A DNA stretch of 63,533 nt, filler included, from Folioceros fuciformis (lineage: Eukaryota), in NCBI GenBank assembly GCA_049999805.1. It is 11 parts of 11 records of this genome, joined end to end, with 100 filler letters (N's around TTAATTAATTAA, not from the genome) between each part and the next. Parts side by side here need not be neighbours in the genome. Positions count along the whole stretch, not along the records: positions 17,860 to 35,672 come from JBNGIO010005123.1; 10 more parts are not named here. The stretch is one strand, 5' to 3'. Below the pieces are notes generated by a model. It was given only the letters and a program-made list of their open reading frames with translations, searched no databases and was not told the origin of the DNA. Every line of letters starts with the position of its first letter. Position 1 is the first letter of the stretch. Position numbers and translations under genes: made by a program. Positions 10,672 through 57,020 of the stretch are shown here, piece after piece.

Positions 10672-10771
10672 NNNNNNNNNNNNNNNNNNNNNNNNNNNNN
10701 NNNNNNNNNNNNNNNTTAATTAATTAANNNNNNNNNNNNNNNNNNNNNNNNNNNNNNNNNNNNNNNNNNNN
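10672..10771. other. Artificial contig spacer
   Basis: N44-TTAATTAATTAA-N44. Confidence 0.99.
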
Positions 10772-22397: not shown

Positions 22398-25325
22398 ATG
22401 GGAAACACATATTCAGGAGAGTTTAAGGAAAAGGACTGGTTTGATAGTAAACCTTTTCGATTTGAGAGCTGGAGAGCTTGTATGAGCAATGGCAGGTCAG
22501 GCCATCGTCAGCGAGGTGACAAAGTCATCTCTGCCAAAGCTAAAGGTCCTTGGAACGGGAAAGATAGAGGAGCAAAGAAGCAGCAGTCTAACGACTCAAG
22601 CTCGACTCCAACTTCCTCTACTAAACGAAAAGGTACCTGTCACTAGGGCCAGATTCCAGGGCACTGGGAACGAGACTGCCACAAGAAGAAGGCTGGTGAG
22701 CCTAAGAAGGAGGCCAAGCAGGAGGTTCACGCTATCTCAAAGGAGAAGAAGACCTCAGCTGGCTCCAATAGTACCTCACAACAGCGTAGCGGTAGTGGTA
22801 CGGCTTTGACAGTTTGCCTCACACTATCCAAAGGCAGTTCTTCATAGTGGTTTGTGGACTCGGGAGCCACGTCGCACATCTGCAATAATCGTGGCCTCTT
22901 CCTGAAATTCCACAAACAAACGTCACCACAATTAGTGTTTGTAGGTGATTCTAGAGGAGTGAAGGTCAGAGGTTCTGGTACAGTAGAATTGCTTTTATTA
23001 GATGGGTCTTGTCTACTGTTAGAGGATGTCATGTTTATCCCCGACATGAGTAAAAACCTGTTGTTAATTCGAGCTATCTCTCAAAGTCAGAAATATGGTT
23101 TTAGGTTTGAGAATAATACCTGCTTAGTTTACCCTCTTTCTGACCTTGATAGTCATGTTGCTAAGGCAATGTTAGCTGAGGAACTCCACCAGCTTGTTCC
23201 AACACACAAGTCTAAGGCTAGAGTTTTACTTACTGCTTCTAGTGAACAGGCTAGTATTTGGCATGCTAAATTAGGTCACGTCAATCGTGCTAAGTTGGAC
23301 CTTATGGCTAATTCTTCATGTTATCGAGAACGCTTACCTTCTTGCTTCAAACATCTTGCATCCTGCAGCTCTTGTATCTTGTCAAAACAGAAAGAGTTGC
23401 CCTTTAAAAACAGAAGTGCCAATCGTGCTAAGCAAGTGCTAGAGGTAATTCATGCAGATACAGCGGGAAAGCTACCTGTCAAATCTGTAGGTGGAGCAGA
23501 GTACTACCTGTCCCTTACAGATGACTACTCCAGGTATACATGGACTTTTCCAATCAGGCAGAAGAGCGTTGTGTTTGACACCATCTCGGATCACCATGGT
23601 TCAACGACAGACTAGTCAACTAGTTAAATGCTTTCGAACCAACAATGGTGGTGAATTTACTATCTAGCAGTTTGATGTCCTGTTTGATTCACTTGGCATA
23701 GTGAGACAGCTTTCTGTTCCCTACACACAGCAGCAAAATGGTGTGGCAGAGCGTAAGAATCAAACTTTGATGGAAATGGTTAAGAGTATGTTGTCGTGGG
23801 TAGCTCTCTCTAAGAAGTTATGGGCAGAAGCCATAGTGTGTGCCACTTATATATTAAATCGAGTTGTTACGTCTGCTCTCCCCGGCAAGACACCCTATGA
23901 AGCATTATGGGGTCGTAAGCCTAGTCTTCTTCATTTGAAGGTGTTTGGGTCTCCTGCTTTTGCCTTTATTCCTGAACCTAAAAGAAAGAAGTTAGATGCC
24001 ATATCTAAGCCTTTCATCTTTTTAGGCTATTCTTAGGAGTCAAAAGCATATAAGCTCTATGTTCCTATCACGTCTTGAATTACTCTGTCTTGGAGTGCCA
24101 CTTTTCTAGAGCTTACCTCTCCTCAATCTGATTTGTATGTAGGCCAGTTGTATGCTACAGATCCCATGTTTTCAAATGATCCTTCTCCTGGTTTGGACTT
24201 AGATGACTTTGAGCAAGCTGTCACACATCCCGTTTTCGATGGTGAGATTACTGCTCTGACTGCTCAGCTAGATGCTGATCCTCTTCTACAAGAACCCTTA
24301 CACAATCCAGTACCACTAGCAGCTGGTCCAGATGATGATATACAGTCCCAACATTCTTCGGATTCGAGTTTTGCTCCTCCTTCTCACCATGCTGAGGTTG
24401 ATGGTTTCGAGGATGATGTTGCTGCAGAGGGAGCAAAGGGGAATGACCTCAAAGCTGCTCCCCCTCCACCAGATCTTCCTCATTATTCCTTCAGAGACAG
24501 GCGGTCAAGAGACAACTGGATTGAGCCTCCTTACCAATCTATGGATTTTCGAAGACATGCAGCAAATGTAACTGACCTTCATGTTCCTAATGTAAGGCCA
24601 GATCCTCACACTTACACATAAGCCATTAGTGGCCTTGATGATAAGCACTGGCGGATCTCTATTGATGAAGAGTACAAATCTCTTATCAAGAATCATACTT
24701 GGGAGCTGGCTGACCTGCCTCTTGGAAGAAAGCCCATAACGTGTAAGTGGGTGTTCAAGACAAAATTGAAGGCAGATGGCACAATTGCGAGGTATAAGTC
24801 ACGCTTGGTTGCAAGAGGTTTTTCTCAGATACTTGGCATTCACTATGGGGACACGTTTTCCCCGGTAGTTAAGCCTCCCTCTGTGCGTATCTTGCTTGCC
24901 ATGGCTGCTGAATTCGACCTTGAGCTTCATCAAATGGATGTGTGTACAGCCTTCTTACACGGTGAGCTTGAAGAGGTCCTTTACATGCAGCAGCTTGAAG
25001 GGTTTGTAGACAAACGTTGGCCGCAGAAGGTGTGCAAGCTGTTGAAGACACTCTATGGCTTGAAGCAGGGTCCTCGTGCCTAGTACAAACGCATTATAAA
25101 GTTCTTAAGGAAAAATGGTTTTGTTCAATCACCTACAGACAACAATGTTTTTTACCTTGCTTCTGAGAGTTTGTTTGTGATCTTGGCGCTGTATGTGGAT
25201 GATGCCATCCTACTCAGTAATAGCCCTTCTAAGCTCGATGAAGTAAAAGCCCTTCTTTGTTCATAATTTGAGATGACTGATCAGGGCTCTTTGTAGTACT
25301 CCTTGAATATCTAAATTTTGCGCGA
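22398..25325 (+). pseudogene. pol: Element Y gag (internally deleted), protease, integrase and 5' RT
   Basis: FKEKDWF..FESWRA; protease [75 protein letters not shown]; multiple stop codons. Confidence 0.93.
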
Positions 25326-25649
25326 AAGAGGCGAATGCAAGTTTGTATCAATTATAATAAGCTCATGTCAAAATCGCAACGAATTGTATCATGAACTACT
25401 CAGACGAAAACCAGGTCATCCTCATTGGCCTTAGAATTAACTACGATGTCTAACTCTCTTATCCGTTGACCATCCGCATCGCCGAAGTCGTCGCCATCCA
25501 CCTCGAGCACAAAAAAGTTCGGGTCGTCCACTGTTTAGGGGGGTATAGTTCCATTTTCATCCCATACCATGATGGCGTACAGGTCTTATACTAGCCTACC
25601 ATCACTCTGGGAGAAGACCTCACCTTTCTTCTCCAATAGACTATAAACC

Positions 25650-26883
25650 TACATTCTCCATTCAACCCGAGCTCATCATGAATATACTTGACCTATTCGA
25701 TGAACCCCATTCTTTTCCTCTTGTCCAGATAGATGTTATGGTCCACAGCTAATACCCTCATTTTCTCTTCTATAAGGCCAGCATAGACGTGGCATTCCAT
25801 CCATTCATACTTATCCTTGGTAGGAAACATCTGATGCAGTTTCTACATAGCTGCAAAACAATGGTTCCCACCAAGCACACCCATGTGATATTGTTGAGGA
25901 GTAATCTTCTCCAAAGAGACGTCCTCCTTCTTTGCCGCCTGCTTGGGGTCTATCATACATAGAAGAGGTAAGACACCTTTCTTCACAGATCCCGCTTACA
26001 TTTGTCTCACCAGACACTTCATCCAGGCTTCATCAACTTCTCTTATCCAAGCATCACAGGTTATGAACAAGGCCAGATGTCAAATGTCCACATGTTAATC
26101 AAACGTTGTTGACCGAATCCTCTTCGAATGCGCTTTCTTCCTTACAGCATTCAAATCGTTCTTATTCTGTGCCAACCTCTCCAGCCTTTCAGAGTTTTAT
26201 TCCAATGCTCAAGTGCTCTTGCTCTACAATATGTATAGTTCTCCCTTTCTTCTTCGTCTTCTGCCTACCTTCAACCAATACTATAAACACAGGTAACCTT
26301 TTCCTTTTCTTCTACGGGGATGTTGCTGCAGCACAAAGTCATTAGTGTCCACGTGAACGTACGCACTGGGTAAAAAGCTTTGGCTATCCACCAAAGGCAT
26401 CTAACAAAAGACACTAAGCAATCACTTGTTGATGATTGAAAGCTATTGCAAAGGTCTTGTGTTGTTGCTTCGCTGGGGAAGCAAAAAGCTTCCGCTGCCG
26501 CACAATTGGTGCACCGGTAGACCAGCGCACCTGCTTCACTCTCGTCTGGAGGGGTGTAATCTCCACAAGTGAATCTGGGGCATTATCTTCCTCCGCACTT
26601 GAAATTCGCCTAGCCTCCTCAACTTTGTTGAGACTATCCTCAGCCAATGAGGACTCCTCCATCTCCTTTCCTTCTTCCTCGTTGTATACTGGTACGTCTG
26701 GGGCTTTGTCTTCAGAAACCTCTGGTTGCATGCGCGGCATTTACTGCCTTTCGATCTCTAACCCTCCTTCATGTGAAACTGTTGGCGCAAATTGCGCTCG
26801 TAAGGATTGCTGCTGGCGATCTCCTACATGCATGGCCACAATTGCCCGGTTCTTCAGCATTGCGTCCCCCACACACTGCATTA
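25650..26883 (-). pseudogene. Decayed gene with an acidic N-terminal exon and a ParB/sulfiredoxin-like domain
   Basis: The minus frame through 26157-25650 reads ...WIREVDEAWMKCLVRQM*AGSVKKGVLPLLCMIDP...QYHMGVLGGNHCFAAM*KLHQMFP..YEWMECHVYAGLIEEKMRVLAVDHN...RMGFIE*V, with GGNH at 25861-25872 and about 5 in-frame stops. An upstream acidic ORF lies at 26414-26740. Confidence 0.68.
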
Positions 26884-27265
26884 TAATTCTACAGAACTAC
26901 TCGCCACCCTATGTGTCGAACACTTCATGACAAATTAGGGTTTTCATGTAAATTACGAACCTAAAATAATCAAACACAGGGACTCATTCTCCGGATGAGA
27001 AGCCTCATATGAAATGGAAGTTAAACCTCTATAGGTTGTTAGGGATGACAGATGAAGGGGGAGATTAGCACGACACGAACTGGGTACAAAAAATGGTTAA
27101 CAGGCAGACTGTTCTATAGAGAGTGGCAAGATGCAGTGGTGTTCTCTGGAACAACGTAGAAAGGATTTTTAGAATGTGGGAGAATCGCGAATTTTCGGAA
27201 CAGGTGAGCATCGCTAGTGCGGGTACGGAAAAAAGAGCCAAGGCGAAGAGGAAGGCTTGAGCTTC

Positions 27266-27415
27266 AGTGCGCCGGTCTATCAGTGCACTAAAGCTCAAGC
27301 TAGTCGGATTGCGCAAGTAGATCGGTGCACTCGTGCTCGTGGCCGTCGGAGTGCTTTGGTCTACCGGCGCACTCGAACTCAAGGCAGCTACAGTGTGCCC
27401 ATCTACCAGCGCACT
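27266..27415. repeat. Array of four 24-bp near-palindromes with an exact 42-bp period
   Basis: Consensus AGTGCGCCGGTCTACCGGCGCACT at 27266, 27308, 27350 and 27392; a fifth copy at 26508-26531. Confidence 0.85.
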
Positions 27416-27494
27416 CCCTTAAGATTTCATTTAACTGAATTTTTTCTGCACATTTATAACGTTTTTGAATATAGACTAACAGGTTCTTTTCGGA

Positions 27495-28288
27495 ATGCAG
27501 AAACTTGTAGACATTACGGACTTAAAGTCTTTACCAAAACCTTTTCAAGATTCTGTATACTCAGCTAAGAATTGGAAAAGAATGAAAGAGGAGAAACAAA
27601 AGTTGGCGGACGCAGGTATGGACACAGGGTTATTGAACTTCAGGGTACTTTCTAGTAACATAAAGGTTAAATATCAGGTTATTCAATGGAATGTTCTGGA
27701 AATGAAGGCATTTCTGGTTAAACGGCCATATACGCTATTATTTGCAGACTTGCCGTGTGACAAGCAGATGAACATCTCCAAGTTAAATGAAATTATTCGG
27801 GGGTTTAGCGAATGCACTTCTAGCACCATTTTTAGGGTTGTCCTGATGCATGGAGTTGATCTCATATTAGAAGCAAGAGAGGCCCTTCAACCATGGTGCA
27901 AGAAGGGGAGTATCCAAACTTTAATGTGGGAGAAGACAAATATACCTCCGAACGTAGGTGGAGTTGAATTGGTGGAATATTTAACTGTGGGTAGTACAGT
28001 GCATAACGATGCCCACGAGTTCAAGGCAGCACTATTTGCGAATCAAGGTTTTCTTCTGCTTGGAGTTATAAGGCATGGAGCAGTGGTGAAGAAACACCTT
28101 TTCCATTCTGGAAATGCCCTAGTCGTCTCCCCGTATCAAAAATCTTAGCATTGATGAGTATGCTCGTGAACATGTTTTCCTCGGAGGGCGATTGGGTAGT
28201 GGATGCATGTGCAAAATCTGGCACTCTTCTTCAAAGTGCCGTTCATAATGGAAGGCATGCGGTTGCAATCGATGTTGACCTCAGTTGA
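27495..28288 (+). pseudogene. Circularly permuted (beta-class) N4-cytosine/N6-adenine DNA methyltransferase-like gene, frameshifted at about 28147
   Basis: Motif IV-like YTLLFADLPC (DLPC at 27747-27758) and MWEKTN..., then PYQKS / ALMSMLVNMFSSEGDWVVDACAKSGTLLQSAVHNGRHAVAIDVD. This matches the N6_N4_Mtase C-terminal pattern (P.QKP..L...LI...S..GD.VLDPF.GSGT...A...GR..IG.D). Confidence 0.82.
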
Positions 28289-28312
28289 CTACTTACATTA
28301 TGCAGCGGGTCA

Positions 28313-28870
28313 TTGGGAGGTACTTGAAAGGGACTAGTACCTTGGGACTGCATTATACTTCCTCTGGCCGACAAGGTTTCACACTGTCCGCCTTTGCTGA
28401 TGCTGACTGCATCTGATGTTGACTCTTGGAAGAGCCTCTCAGCATATGTGTTCTTCCTTGCAAGTGGTGCTGTGAACTGGTCATGCAAGAAGCAAACGCC
28501 TTTGGCGTTGTCGTCAACTGAGGCTGAGTATAAGGCCCTGACAGACACATGCAAAGAGTTAGAGTGGGAAAGGCAGTTTTTGGATGCAGTAAATGTACCC
28601 CAGCCTGGCCCGACTACTCTCTTGTGTGACAATATGTCAGTTATCTCGCTTGTGGCCAATCCGAGGTTTCATGCGAGGACTAAGCATATTGAGTTATATC
28701 ATCACTACATTCGTGATGTGGCTGAAAGAGGGATAGTGCAAGTACAAAATGTTAGTACAAATGAGAACACAACTGATGTTTTTACTAAGGGTCTCTCAAA
28801 GGAGAAACATTACAAGCCTCTGGCGGCTTTAAGTCTAAGGGTCTTCACCATCCCTACACCCAGTGTCTAA
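28313..28870 (+). pseudogene. pol: Element Y end of RT and RNase H
   Basis: RYLKGTSTLGLHY, FADAD, WSCKKQTPLALSSTEAEY, CDNMSVI, RFHARTKHIELYHHYIRD, DVFTKGL. Confidence 0.93.
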
Positions 28871-54966: not shown

Positions 54967-55066
54967 NNNNNNNNNNNNNNNNNNNNNNNNNNNNNNNNNN
55001 NNNNNNNNNNTTAATTAATTAANNNNNNNNNNNNNNNNNNNNNNNNNNNNNNNNNNNNNNNNNNNN
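54967..55066. other. Artificial contig spacer
   Basis: N44-TTAATTAATTAA-N44. Confidence 0.99.
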
Positions 55067-55067
55067 A

Positions 55068-57020
55068 CGTCCAGCTGTTAGGGCCCTGTATGAAGAGATT
55101 CGGGCGTGGTTCGGCAATGAGCTGATCATGGACGCGGTGCAGTGTGGCTCATATGCACACAGGCTTCGCAGTTACTGGACAAATGTGGCTGGACTGGAGG
55201 TGCTCAGACAGCACAGGAATTTGACAACTCCGAAGCGGAAGGTTGTGGATGATATCCTAGAGTTGGGAAGGTGCTCACAACAAGTGAAGAGGATGGACAA
55301 GTTGCCATTTTACCCTGTGAATCGAGTAGGGGAATCCAGAAGGGCATGGCCAACTCTGGTGAGCACACCGCAATCTTATGCCTTCAGACCAGGAGGAGAT
55401 GGTGTGATTCTGGATTTGAAAGGGAATGAGCTTGGAGAGCTCAATGTTGAGGAACGCGAGCAAGCGATGGGCTTTGCCAAGAAGGACACTCAGACCATGG
55501 GCATCACAGAATCTGCAAGGTGCAGGATGCTCGGACAGGCATTTGACTTGTACAGTCTAAGGTGGCTGGTAAGCACAGGCTTGGCGTTCCAACTTGCAGA
55601 AGCCGAAGGGAAGCGAAGGCCTTTCCTCCAACTACTGCAGGATAAAGAGGTTCCTAAGGCAGAGGAAGACGAGCTGCTACTGTTAGAAGGAGAACTCGTG
55701 AGGAAAGTACCAAGTCATGAGGAAAGAGTGGGCATAGTGACCAAGGTGCACGAAACCCTTGGCCACTTTGGTGTGAAGAGGACACACCACATGCTGAAAA
55801 GCACGTATTTCTGGTCAGGGATGTATGCAGATGTCGAGAAGGTGGTTGCTAAGTGTGCTGCATGTGATGCAGTCAAAGCCCGATTTAACACCCAGGATGT
55901 GGTGTTGCACTCCCTACCAATCAGGGGGCTATTCTTTAGATGGTCGGTTGACCTTATGCCAGAGCTTCCCCTCACAAAGCAAGGTAACCGACATTGCATG
56001 GTCATGATTGAGCATTTCTCTAAGTGGGTTGAAGTAGCGTTCTTGCCACAGAGAACTTCACACTACACTAGCAGAGCGTTTCTGCAGTGTGTGCTCAGCC
56101 GATTTGGGAGCTGCGCGGAAGTGCTCACAGACCAGGGTAACGAGTTTCGAGGTGAATTCCAGACCTTGCTCGACAGGAGTCTCATTGATCACAGGAGGAC
56201 ATCGAGGGATCATCCACAGGCCGATGGCCTGGCAGAAAGGCTAGTGCAGACCTTCAAGGATGCACTAAGGAAATACTGCATTACTGTGGAGCCCAAGTGT
56301 TGGGATGAATTGCTCCCTTACATCGTGTTGGGGTACAGGGTCAGTGTGCAGGCAACTCTTGGAAGTTTCAGTCCATACTTTTTGTTATTCGGACGCAACG
56401 CAGTGTTGCCGAATGTGGTGAAGGACACCTACTCCATCCCTGTTGACTGGAGCAAAGATGCAAATGTGTGCTTGGCACAGGTTCAAGCCAGAGCAGAAGT
56501 ATTTCAAAGAATTCTTCCCATGGCTATGGATAATTTGGCTGTGGCCCAGCATCGGGACCAGCTGAGGTATGCTTATACGCGGGGGGGCTCGTGGAAGCCC
56601 AAAGGCCGCAAGTTTGCATCTGGAGATTACGTGTACTTGCAGCGCAGGCCTGCAAGCACGTTAGCTGTCAGCACAGGAAGGCTTATCCTGCGAGTTGTCC
56701 AGGTTGGTGAGCAAGGTGTGGTTGAACTTGAAGGAAGAGATGGCAGAAGGTGCAAGGAACACATGAAGCACTTGGCTCCATGCCATTTGCCTGATCTGGA
56801 TACACGAACTGTGCCTCAGACCTGGACGCCACCAGCAGATTTGCCCTGTGAGGAGTGTGGACACACAACTGACGACGAATTCATGTTGCTATGTGACAGG
56901 TGTAACCGTGGTTACCATCTGTTTTGCCTCAAACCGGCACTGGACAGTGTTCCAGAAGAAGAATGGCTATGTGAGCACTGTAATGTGCTAAAGTGTGAAC
57001 GTGGCTCTTACAGAAGGTGA
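55068..57020 (+). CDS. Ty3/gypsy pol C-terminus: DNMT3-like C5 DNA methyltransferase (motifs VII-X), integrase and PHD finger; 5'-truncated by contig edge
   Basis: The frame is open from 55068. DNMT part (~55068-55570): MDAVQCGSYAHRLRSYWTN and EEREQAMGF..DT..ESARCRMLGQAF. Integrase: HHCC (VHETLGHFG..CAAC) and DDE (WSVDL, LTDQGNEF, GLAERL). PHD C4-H-C3 at 56847-56981. Confidence 0.9.
   Translation, partial: RPAVRALYEEIRAWFGNELIMDAVQCGSYAHRLRSYWTNVAGLEVLRQHRNLTTPKRKVVDDILELGRCSQQVKRMDKLPFYPVNRVGESRRAWPTLVSTPQSYAFRPGGDGVILDLKGNELGELNVEEREQAMGFAKKDTQTMGITESARCRMLGQAFDLYSLRWLVSTGLAFQLAEAEGKRRPFLQLLQDKEVPKAEEDELLLLEGELVRKVPSHEERVGIVTKVHETLGHFGVKRTHHMLKSTYFWSGMYADVEKVVAKCAACDAVKARFNTQDVVLHSLPIRGLFFRWSVDLMPELPLTKQGNRHCMVMIEHFSKWVEVAFLPQRTSHYTSRAFLQCVLSRFGSCAEVLTDQGNEFRGEFQTLLDRSLIDHRRTSRDHPQADGLAERLVQTFKDALRKYCITVEPKCWDELLPYIVLGYRVSVQATLGSFSPYFLLFGRNAVLPNVVKDTYSIPVDWSKDANVCLAQVQARAEVFQRILPMAMDNLAVAQHRDQLRYAYTRGGSWKPKGRKFASGDYVYLQRRPASTLAVSTGRLILRVVQVGEQGVVELEGRDGRRCKEHMKHLAPCHLPDLDTRTVPQTWTPPADLPCEECGHTTDDEFMLLCDRCNRGYHLFCLKPALDSVPEEEWLCEHCNVLKCERGSYRR

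Follow-up and report, generated by a model that had tools for sequence, protein, structure and literature searches.

A dead methyltransferase-like pseudogene of a rare eukaryotic family in a repeat fragment within a decayed copia element of Folioceros fuciformis

What is the roughly 3-kb insert that breaks a copia reverse transcriptase (RT) gene in the Folioceros fuciformis genome (assembly GCA_049999805.1)? The stretch of DNA analysed, called the window here, comprises 11 joined parts of that assembly and is 63,533 nucleotides long, filler included. Bacterial-type amino-methyltransferases are rare in eukaryotes, and two of them, in Marchantia and in bdelloid rotifers, write a new epigenetic mark. 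The preliminary description of the locus saw two decayed genes in the insert, one for a permuted N4/N6 DNA methyltransferase (MTase) on the plus strand and one for a ParB/Srx-like protein on the minus strand, and took them for a piece of a DNA-transposon-like element carrying a writer of N4-methylcytosine or N6-methyladenine (4mC/6mA). Our analysis indicates that the insert holds a genuine but dead MTase-like pseudogene of a rare eukaryotic family, which is part of a repeat fragment of low copy number within a decayed copia element; the ParB gene is unproven.

On the plus strand, a 222-codon open frame (27480-28148) is followed by a 93-codon frame that lies one base out of frame. The strings that had been pointed out, LFADLPC, PYQK and MFSSEGDWVVDACAKSGT...GRHAVAIDVD, are indeed found on this strand in two frames that differ by one base. 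In the profile check against PF01555 (N6_N4_Mtase), the piece 28007-28288, from the second part of the gene, passes narrowly, scoring 26.9 bits where the cut-off is 26.7 (E 5.5e-6). NCBIfam gave only a 12-bit trace on the second piece, and the 222-residue first piece alone matched nothing in Pfam, NCBIfam or PDB by sequence; a word-based protein search with that piece also returned nothing, a result made weak by length limits. The relatives described below match both pieces: residues 8-247 of P0003 align with 27483-28142 and residues 244-293 with 28130-28279, giving a joint E of 5.9e-27 (tblastn). Such two-piece matches across the frameshift were obtained with all three full-length relatives (P0003, P0005 and P0006), P0003 being the best, and tblastn found no other match to the relatives in the window outside the MTase frames. 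Judged by this homology and by its motifs, a permuted (beta-class) N6_N4-type methyltransferase-like pseudogene is present in the insert.

Motif IV of amino-methyltransferases is (D/N/S)PP(Y/F/W), and their S-adenosylmethionine (SAM) loop reads x-G-S-G. The window copy departs from both. Its catalytic motif IV is DLPC, which does not fit (D/N/S)-P-P-(Y/F/W), and about nine residues after DLP are absent, so that the next residue is C. Its motif I reads DACAKSGT (CAKSG), where all four relatives covering the site have C(S/A)GSG, and the glycine-rich loop is lost. Homology to the relatives ends at 28279, some 30 conserved residues before the end of their domain (alignment). From its sequence, the copy is dead, as had been claimed, by virtue of the frameshift, the end of the gene after the SAM motif, the CAKSG loop and the loss after DLP. 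The notion of two decayed genes nevertheless overstated the decay of the MTase: the copy is broken, yet its first part has no stop in 215 codons and the gene shows a single frameshift. DLPC itself had been read as simple decay. However, the strand-4 catalytic loop is DLPRG in six of the six aligned sequences that cover it, and DLPC is thus largely a family trait. The cysteine is encoded by TGT, which a single CpG-type transition separates from the arginine codon CGT, and DLPC is best read as a decayed DLPR.

It had also been supposed that relatives exist elsewhere, and they do. A phmmer search of 1,835,955,588 representative proteins (E<=1e-3) gave five, P0002-P0006, about 30% identical (E 1.5e-11 to 3.7e-4), and a profile search added P0009. 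All of them are from read-assembly contigs and carry neither a name nor a database accession. The PF01555 scores obtained for relatives are 30.0, 50.1, 47.3 and 39.7 bits. The SAM-binding half is kept in the family as SPYQKP, GDWV.DGC(S/A)GSG and NVIAVDVD, and in the alignments motif IV precedes motif I, which is the permuted, beta-class order. An AlphaFold model of P0005, built on a nine-row alignment, has a predicted local distance difference test score (pLDDT) of 65.1 and a predicted template modelling score of 0.68, and it places DLPRG directly after the strand 83-89. Foldseek matched this model to CcrM (E 6.7e-12, 254 columns), to N4CMT of Adineta vaga (1.4e-9) and further to MboIIA, M1.HpyAVI, M.BceJIV, RsrI and PvuII, with 254-299 aligned columns overall. 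In the model, therefore, the relative P0005 has a complete beta-class fold, a statement that applies to this relative and not to the broken window copy. Against PDB, the family profile matched M.RsrI (1.4e-7), N4CMT (9.8e-4), TTHA0409, M1.HpyAVI/DpnA, MboIIA, CcrM and M.BceJIV, in each case over the SAM half only. Beyond these relatives, a metagenome scan gave one distant locus (24% identity), a scan of prokaryote genomes gave one locus matching the SAM motif only, and viral contigs gave ordinary phage enzymes only. In the paper collection searched, DLPRG returned unrelated papers only, with no description of the motif variant, and PF01555 in eukaryotes returned the papers cited here.

The eukaryotic nature of the family is indicated by an intron. 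P0007 and P0002 were both called on a contig of 16,193 nucleotides (very likely the same one) and share one organism with P0008, which comes from a contig of 4,011 nucleotides. P0007 reads out of the exon into V-S-E-F..., P0002 reads in via ...V-L-Q, and P0008 has ...SFGGL joined directly to RVRSVGNL. All three part at precisely the position of the window's ...CAG/AAA boundary, and with this shared intron the family is a eukaryotic one. From the joined protein we infer that at least one member, P0008, has been seen in spliced form. P0008 also has 205 additional N-terminal residues, which suggests that the full-length protein of the family is larger than the MTase domain; this region (residues 1-205) had no Pfam match, no usable ESM Atlas match and no match in the window. 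Long low-complexity tails are another property of the relatives.

Where the family came from can be judged by comparison with known enzymes. The nearest non-family sequence that was fetched is a phage enzyme of 224 residues with DIPYG and VWEKTNP. Small phage beta-class N6-adenine MTases (this enzyme, from loci L001/L002, and structurally CcrM, MboIIA, M1.HpyAVI and M.RsrI) share with the family the permuted fold and motif order, W-x-K-T-N, (H/S)P-x-QKP and a strand-4 loop of the form D-hydrophobic-P-x-G. The aromatic residue is retained in the phage enzyme (DIPYG) but is replaced by arginine in the family (DLPRG) and by cysteine in the window; the family further differs in its introns, in an additional conserved stretch at the N-terminus and in its long disordered tails. 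The family thus seems to derive from small phage-type N6-adenine methyltransferases, with arginine in place of the former base-stacking tyrosine.

A special closeness to the eukaryotic N4-cytosine (N4C) MTases of bacterial origin, MpDN4MT1a/b of Marchantia and N4CMT of Adineta vaga, was not supported. These resemble the window gene in being PF01555-type folds in a eukaryote. However, they have (T)SPPY, with TSPPY stated for MpDN4MT1, and proven activity, whereas the window and family motifs DLPC and DLPRG begin with D; the family is also no closer to N4CMT than to others, as the profile E values for N4CMT and M.RsrI given above indicate. The available text of Iyer, Zhang and Aravind 2016 (PMC4738411) treats S in motif IV as a sign of N4C activity, and the leading D, in place of S/T, argues against the N4C type. 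With an arginine at the position of the stacking aromatic, ordinary N6-adenine or N4-cytosine methylation by the family appears doubtful. The label of a 4mC/6mA writer is thus premature even for intact copies, since the family has DLPRG in place of the canonical catalytic motif. According to the available text of the same paper, METTL14 and the methyltransferase (MT) domain of DIRS1 also combine a conserved MTase fold with a replaced catalytic motif, and one of the two belongs to a mobile element. They are not related to PF01555: METTL14 falls in the MT-A70 group and is the partner of an active paralogue, and the DIRS1 domain is PCIF1-derived, inactive and placed inside an RT-RNase H polyprotein. 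An origin from a DIRS1-type MT domain was considered and rejected, as the relatives start with non-RT sequence, including the P0008 N-terminus without a Pfam match, and the only RT nearby is the copia RVT_2, with no polyprotein of a tyrosine-recombinase retroelement.

The surroundings of the gene were then read against the copia element. The window is a nest of long terminal repeat (LTR) retrotransposons; a scan of 20 large frames beyond the insert found copia or gypsy domains in 12. Residues 26-274 of the window's other copia pol match 24571-25335 at 51% identity (E 2.9e-71, tblastn), and the frame is decayed, with four in-frame stops in 241 codons and ...DQGSL(stop)YSLNI(stop)ILRE as its last residues. 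The break and resumption described earlier were borne out: the RT frame runs to about 25335, RYLKGTS resumes at 28318, and part of RT is missing. Other copia copies among the read contigs part from the window just before 28318. By tblastn with the other copia, about 94 RT codons (some 280 bp) are absent between the two copia parts, which means that the insert replaces copia sequence and is not a simple interruption. Self-blastn of the window returned only the self match of the insert. Its G+C content is 0.444, compared with 0.467 for the window, and its CpG observed/expected ratio is 0.68, compared with 0.42 for the flanking copia; CpG is depleted in the insert, but less so. The higher CpG ratio, together with the lack of stops in the MTase frame against four in the RT frame, suggests that the insert is younger than the decay of the surrounding copia.

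Table. Coordinates of the insert, its host element and the features within them (window positions)
Feature	Position	Strand	Basis or remark
Copia RT, N-terminal part (RVT_2-type)	24571-25335	+	tblastn with the window's other copia pol
Insert, about 3 kb	25336-28300		single in the window; sample contigs contain about 2-4 copies (>=90% identity)
Frame with ParB-like strings, P0001 (4 stops as X)	25591-26070	-	4 stops in 160 codons
Open frame, 108 residues from M, acidic, low complexity	26414-26740	-	same strand as the ParB-like frame and upstream of it; matches no family
Near-palindromic 24-bp site, GGTCTAYCRGYGCACT type	26508-26531		two overlapping half-sites, opposite strands
Putative short first exon (MWENREFSEQ)	27174-27203	+	ends at GTGAGC donor; predicted from sequence
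Putative phase-0 intron GTGAGC...TTCTTTTCGGAATGCAG	27204-27500	+	same alignment position as the relatives' intron
Array of four GGTCTAYCRGYGCACT-type sites, 42-nt period	27266-27415		first is again a palindromic pair; inside the putative intron
MTase-like gene, first part	27501-28142	+	conserved N-terminal stretch, strand-4 motif DLPC, WEKTN, SPYQK; phmmer, tblastn
A5 run, frame lost	28138-28142	+	1-nt frameshift; sequence and read contigs
MTase-like gene, second part, -1 frame	28143-28285	+	SAM-binding half GDWVVDACAKSGT...RHAVAIDVD; PF01555, tblastn
Copia resumption (RYLKGTS..., end of RT and RNase H part)	28318-28870	+	translation; further frame change

Read contigs show that the insert sequence is a low-copy repeat. 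Two DNA runs from one sample contain 0.83 and 0.75 of the sampled words of the stretch; these runs may be the assembly's own source and therefore do not count as independent support. Contigs that are 6-9% different were placed at 25950-26185, 26386-26737, 26720-26978, 27234-27748 and 27831-28059, and contig depths over the insert add up to about 2-4 times the depth of single contigs. At the left junction, a 315-nucleotide contig with 0 differences covers 25228-25542, so the junction is real in that sample; at the right junction, no bridging contig was seen among the rows listed (354 further rows not shown). No RNA run was listed among those sharing words with the stretch, and a run guessed to be RNA gave no contigs on it. 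The possibility that the insert is a contaminant, raised at the outset, is countered by the bridged left junction and by a G+C content and CpG depletion like those of host repeats.

The same contigs point to copies that differ in structure. At the A run of 28138-28142, one contig in each of the two runs has one extra A, with which the frame would be preserved. An extra C after 28287, also seen in one contig of each run, would remove the TGA and let the MTase frame read into copia (...RYLKGTS); this means that a second copy or allele of the same MTase-copia chimera may exist. In addition, some contigs of the two runs place 25666 next to 28316, or 25668 next to 26980, on opposite strands, and other copies are thus arranged differently. 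They seem to carry inverted arrangements with a common breakpoint near 25667, and one such arrangement would set the minus-strand frames upstream of the MTase on the same strand.

The differences between the stretch and a further run from the same sample (X3) are nearly all C>T (43) or G>A (41), the pattern of bisulfite-type libraries. Over 25950-26251, where the stretch has 41 G and six CpG, a 302-nucleotide contig of this run has 25 differences, and all those listed are G>A. This leaves about 16 minus-strand cytosines unconverted, more than the six CpG present, and hints at dense cytosine modification of the insert.

Considering these results, we propose as the most likely reading, by analogy and with a probability of roughly 0.55, that the insert is a dead piece of a PAG2/PAG3-like transposon accessory cassette. 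The comparison is with the red alga Bostrychia, in which, according to the available text of a preprint (Petroll et al. 2025, bioRxiv 10.1101/2025.02.11.637652), three accessory genes are carried by giant Plavaka (EnSpm/CACTA) DNA transposons. PAG2 there combines a PF01555 methylase domain with a SET domain; PAG3 combines a 2-oxoglutarate (2OG) oxygenase with an N-terminus that is ParB-like by HHpred only (E 0.29, no InterPro match), and tandem inverted-repeat arrays adjoin it. PAG genes are also described in Mutator, Zisupton and Fanzor-bearing elements, and the copies are mostly degenerate. The idea of a ParB-like and PF01555 accessory pair in eukaryotic DNA transposons, which the preliminary description had put forward, is already in print for red algae. 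As far as the preprint's available text describes them, the likenesses are a PF01555-type gene beside a gene that resembles ParB too faintly for domain databases to report, inverted-repeat arrays alongside (in the window, the four sites of 42-nucleotide period and the palindrome at 26508-26531), and carriage in repeats as mostly degenerate copies. The window insert has the three ingredients within 3 kb, and its weak ParB signal is what the preprint would lead one to expect. According to the available text of other sources, ParB fused to PF01555 is a phage-enriched architecture, and a phage ParB-like protein activates a 2OG thymine dioxygenase.

Under the cassette reading, the sequence of events would be as follows. 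The intact ancestor would have had the MTase gene beside a second gene, represented by the minus-strand frames, and a palindromic site array; the DNA-binding protein of such a cassette would recognise the element's own repeats, and the MTase-like protein would act on the DNA or chromatin of the element by marking or binding it. From this low-copy repeated element, a truncated and dead internal piece would then have ended up inside a copia that was decaying already, replacing about 280 bp of RT. The data show the fold, the family, the position of the intron, the replaced motif, the damage to this copy and the existence of several copies, whereas the identity of the cassette, its partner gene and any activity are what we infer here.

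The strings quoted for a ParB/Srx gene, REVDEAW, VLGGNHCFAA, VYAGLIEE and LAVDHN, do lie in one minus-strand frame (26070-25591, P0001), and to this extent the claim stood. In a tblastn search of plasmids with P0001, two matches were found at E<=10, one of them a Myxococcus ParB_N protein with a database E of 8, and the opposite-strand control frame gave no match against plasmids. This weak alignment (E 8) is in register, setting VLGGNHCFAA on VIGGETRWRA and AVDHNI on ALDENI. The arginine motif of ParB Box II is G-x-x-R-x-x-A. At the place of Box II the window has GGNHCFAA against GGETRWRA of the plasmid ParB_N, within the same weak match (E 8), and the cysteine there is encoded by TGT, which differs from CGT by one CpG-type change. 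A stop-free piece of 50 residues scored 0.85-0.86 in the ESM Atlas, below the 0.9 line; two clusters below that line, one with 38% ParB_N members and one of DUF6551, are related to ParB but are leads only. Openness of the frame is no evidence for a ParB gene, as the opposite plus-strand frame is more open, with three stops in its 160 codons. Two attempts gave little to go on, namely a word-based search with P0001, which found no relative but is made weak by length limits, and a search of genome contigs for relatives of the Myxococcus protein for profile building, which found none. P0001 showed no similarity to the N-terminus of P0008, and its single-sequence AlphaFold model (pLDDT 38.7) is unusable.

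A number of results weigh against the cassette. The ParB/Srx domain failed every profile test: P0001 and its pieces matched no Pfam family at E<=10, P0001 matched nothing in PDB by sequence, tblastn against phage gave no relevant match, and a ParB profile of our own, built from 30 actinobacterial ParB domains and the Myxococcus one (n=31), did not report P0001, whereas it reported 1347 of 2000 shuffles. The ParB loci were drawn from 61 sampled genomes, three of them unpublished, and no locus of the 30 used came from those three. In pairwise comparison with the 30 ParB domains, the summed score of P0001 was reached by 30 of 200 shuffles; among the best pairs with each domain, one of 30 was in register, that of the Myxococcus sequence only. 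The site array is also ambiguous. The 16-nucleotide motif GGTCTAYCRGYGCACT, with <=3 mismatches, has seven matches in the window, all seven in the insert, and shuffles have 1.83 on average and at most 5; but the search pattern was derived from these very sites, and the count is thus descriptive. Tandem Repeats Finder reported nothing on the array, which lies in the putative intron of the MTase, about 1.2 kb from the ParB-like frame. The proposal of a DNA-transposon-like element found no transposase, terminal repeat or target-site duplication in its favour: a domain scan found no DNA-transposase domain among the 20 largest other frames of the window, which gave LTR-retrotransposon domains only, and neither a target-site duplication nor terminal inverted repeats were seen at the insert ends. 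Unlike PAG2/PAG3 as described in the preprint's available text, the window has, by Pfam scans, no SET, 2OG-oxygenase or transposase domain, and the copy is cut on both sides. For the oxygenase, no family was found in the window frames by Pfam, with about 350 bp remaining downstream of the ParB-like frame; for SET, the window gene ends after motif I, so a C-terminal SET domain could not show there, and none was found in the called proteins of the relatives, which may lack exons. The likeness to PAG2/PAG3 is, moreover, a likeness to their published description. Taking both sides together, we put a genuine ParB-like origin of the minus-strand frame at roughly one chance in three, judged from its sequence.

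The main rival of the cassette reading is that the insert is an ordinary cellular gene region, comprising an MTase-like host gene with its promoter and intron, which copia picked up by template switching or as filler DNA in break repair; the ParB strings would be chance, and the extra copies would be copies of the chimeric copia. The conserved intron and the spliced relative fit such an origin, as do the replacement of copia sequence without a target-site duplication, the variant contig with changes at 28137 and 28287, near the right junction, suggesting that the chimera itself exists twice, and the uniformly negative ParB tests. However, the contigs that join 25666-28316 and 25668-26980 on opposite strands are copies arranged differently, the array of palindromic sites occurs only within the insert, and a similar gene pair is described as transposon cargo in the available text of the preprint (10.1101/2025.02.11.637652), so that we hold a cellular origin to be possible but rather unlikely.

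A remnant of an integrated virus, giant or phage-like, with a ParB and MTase module is improbable. It would account for the fact that the nearest non-family sequences are phage methyltransferases; the phage enrichment of ParB fused to PF01555 mentioned above also agrees with it, as does the derivation, in the available text of PMC4738411, of some eukaryotic methyltransferase clades from phage ParB-terminase loci. This explanation is nevertheless hard to reconcile with an intron position common to the window and to relatives of about 30% identity, with the long low-complexity tails of those relatives and with the host-like G+C and CpG depletion of the insert; besides, PF02195 was not found in four viral records searched (of five), and the window holds no other viral gene. 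An assembly misjoin or a contaminant is the least probable of these explanations and can nearly be set aside: the listed contigs do not span the right junction and the frameshift lies in a homopolymer and could be a consensus error, but the 315-nucleotide contig crosses 25228-25542 with 0 differences, the two runs contain most of the sampled words (with the reservation on their source made above), and the composition matches the window.

Going beyond the cassette reading, it can be imagined that the DLPRG proteins form an undescribed, widely scattered eukaryotic MTase-fold family carried as transposon cargo, together with a highly diverged ParB-like DNA binder and parS-like palindromic sites. 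We regard this as unlikely, more so than a cellular origin. If it were true, the phage ParB-methyltransferase module would have a eukaryotic descendant carried by transposons; the exchange of tyrosine for arginine would mean a new substrate, or a SAM-dependent reader that shields the element from silencing; and the cassette would occur outside red algae or in a new carrier.

Two observations concern other parts of the window. A gypsy-type integrase frame (Integrase_H2C2, rve) at 55023-57020 on the plus strand ends in a PHD finger (PF00628, E 7.5e-11). Chromoviruses usually have a chromodomain at the integrase end, a place taken here by the PHD finger. The 880 N of the window form ten pairs of 44-N runs, 12 bases apart (e.g. 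2567-2666, 10672-10771, 55023-55066), a regularity that looks like masking and not like assembly gaps.

The case made by this locus is modest, as the copy is dead and the most similar cassette has already been described in red-algal transposons. Its meaning lies with the family, which is almost invisible in protein databases (five of 1.84 billion representatives, none of them named) and yet has conserved introns and a spliced relative. Every member covering the site has DLPRG for the DPPY-type motif, and a test of activity should therefore precede claims that such cargo writes 6mA or 4mC.

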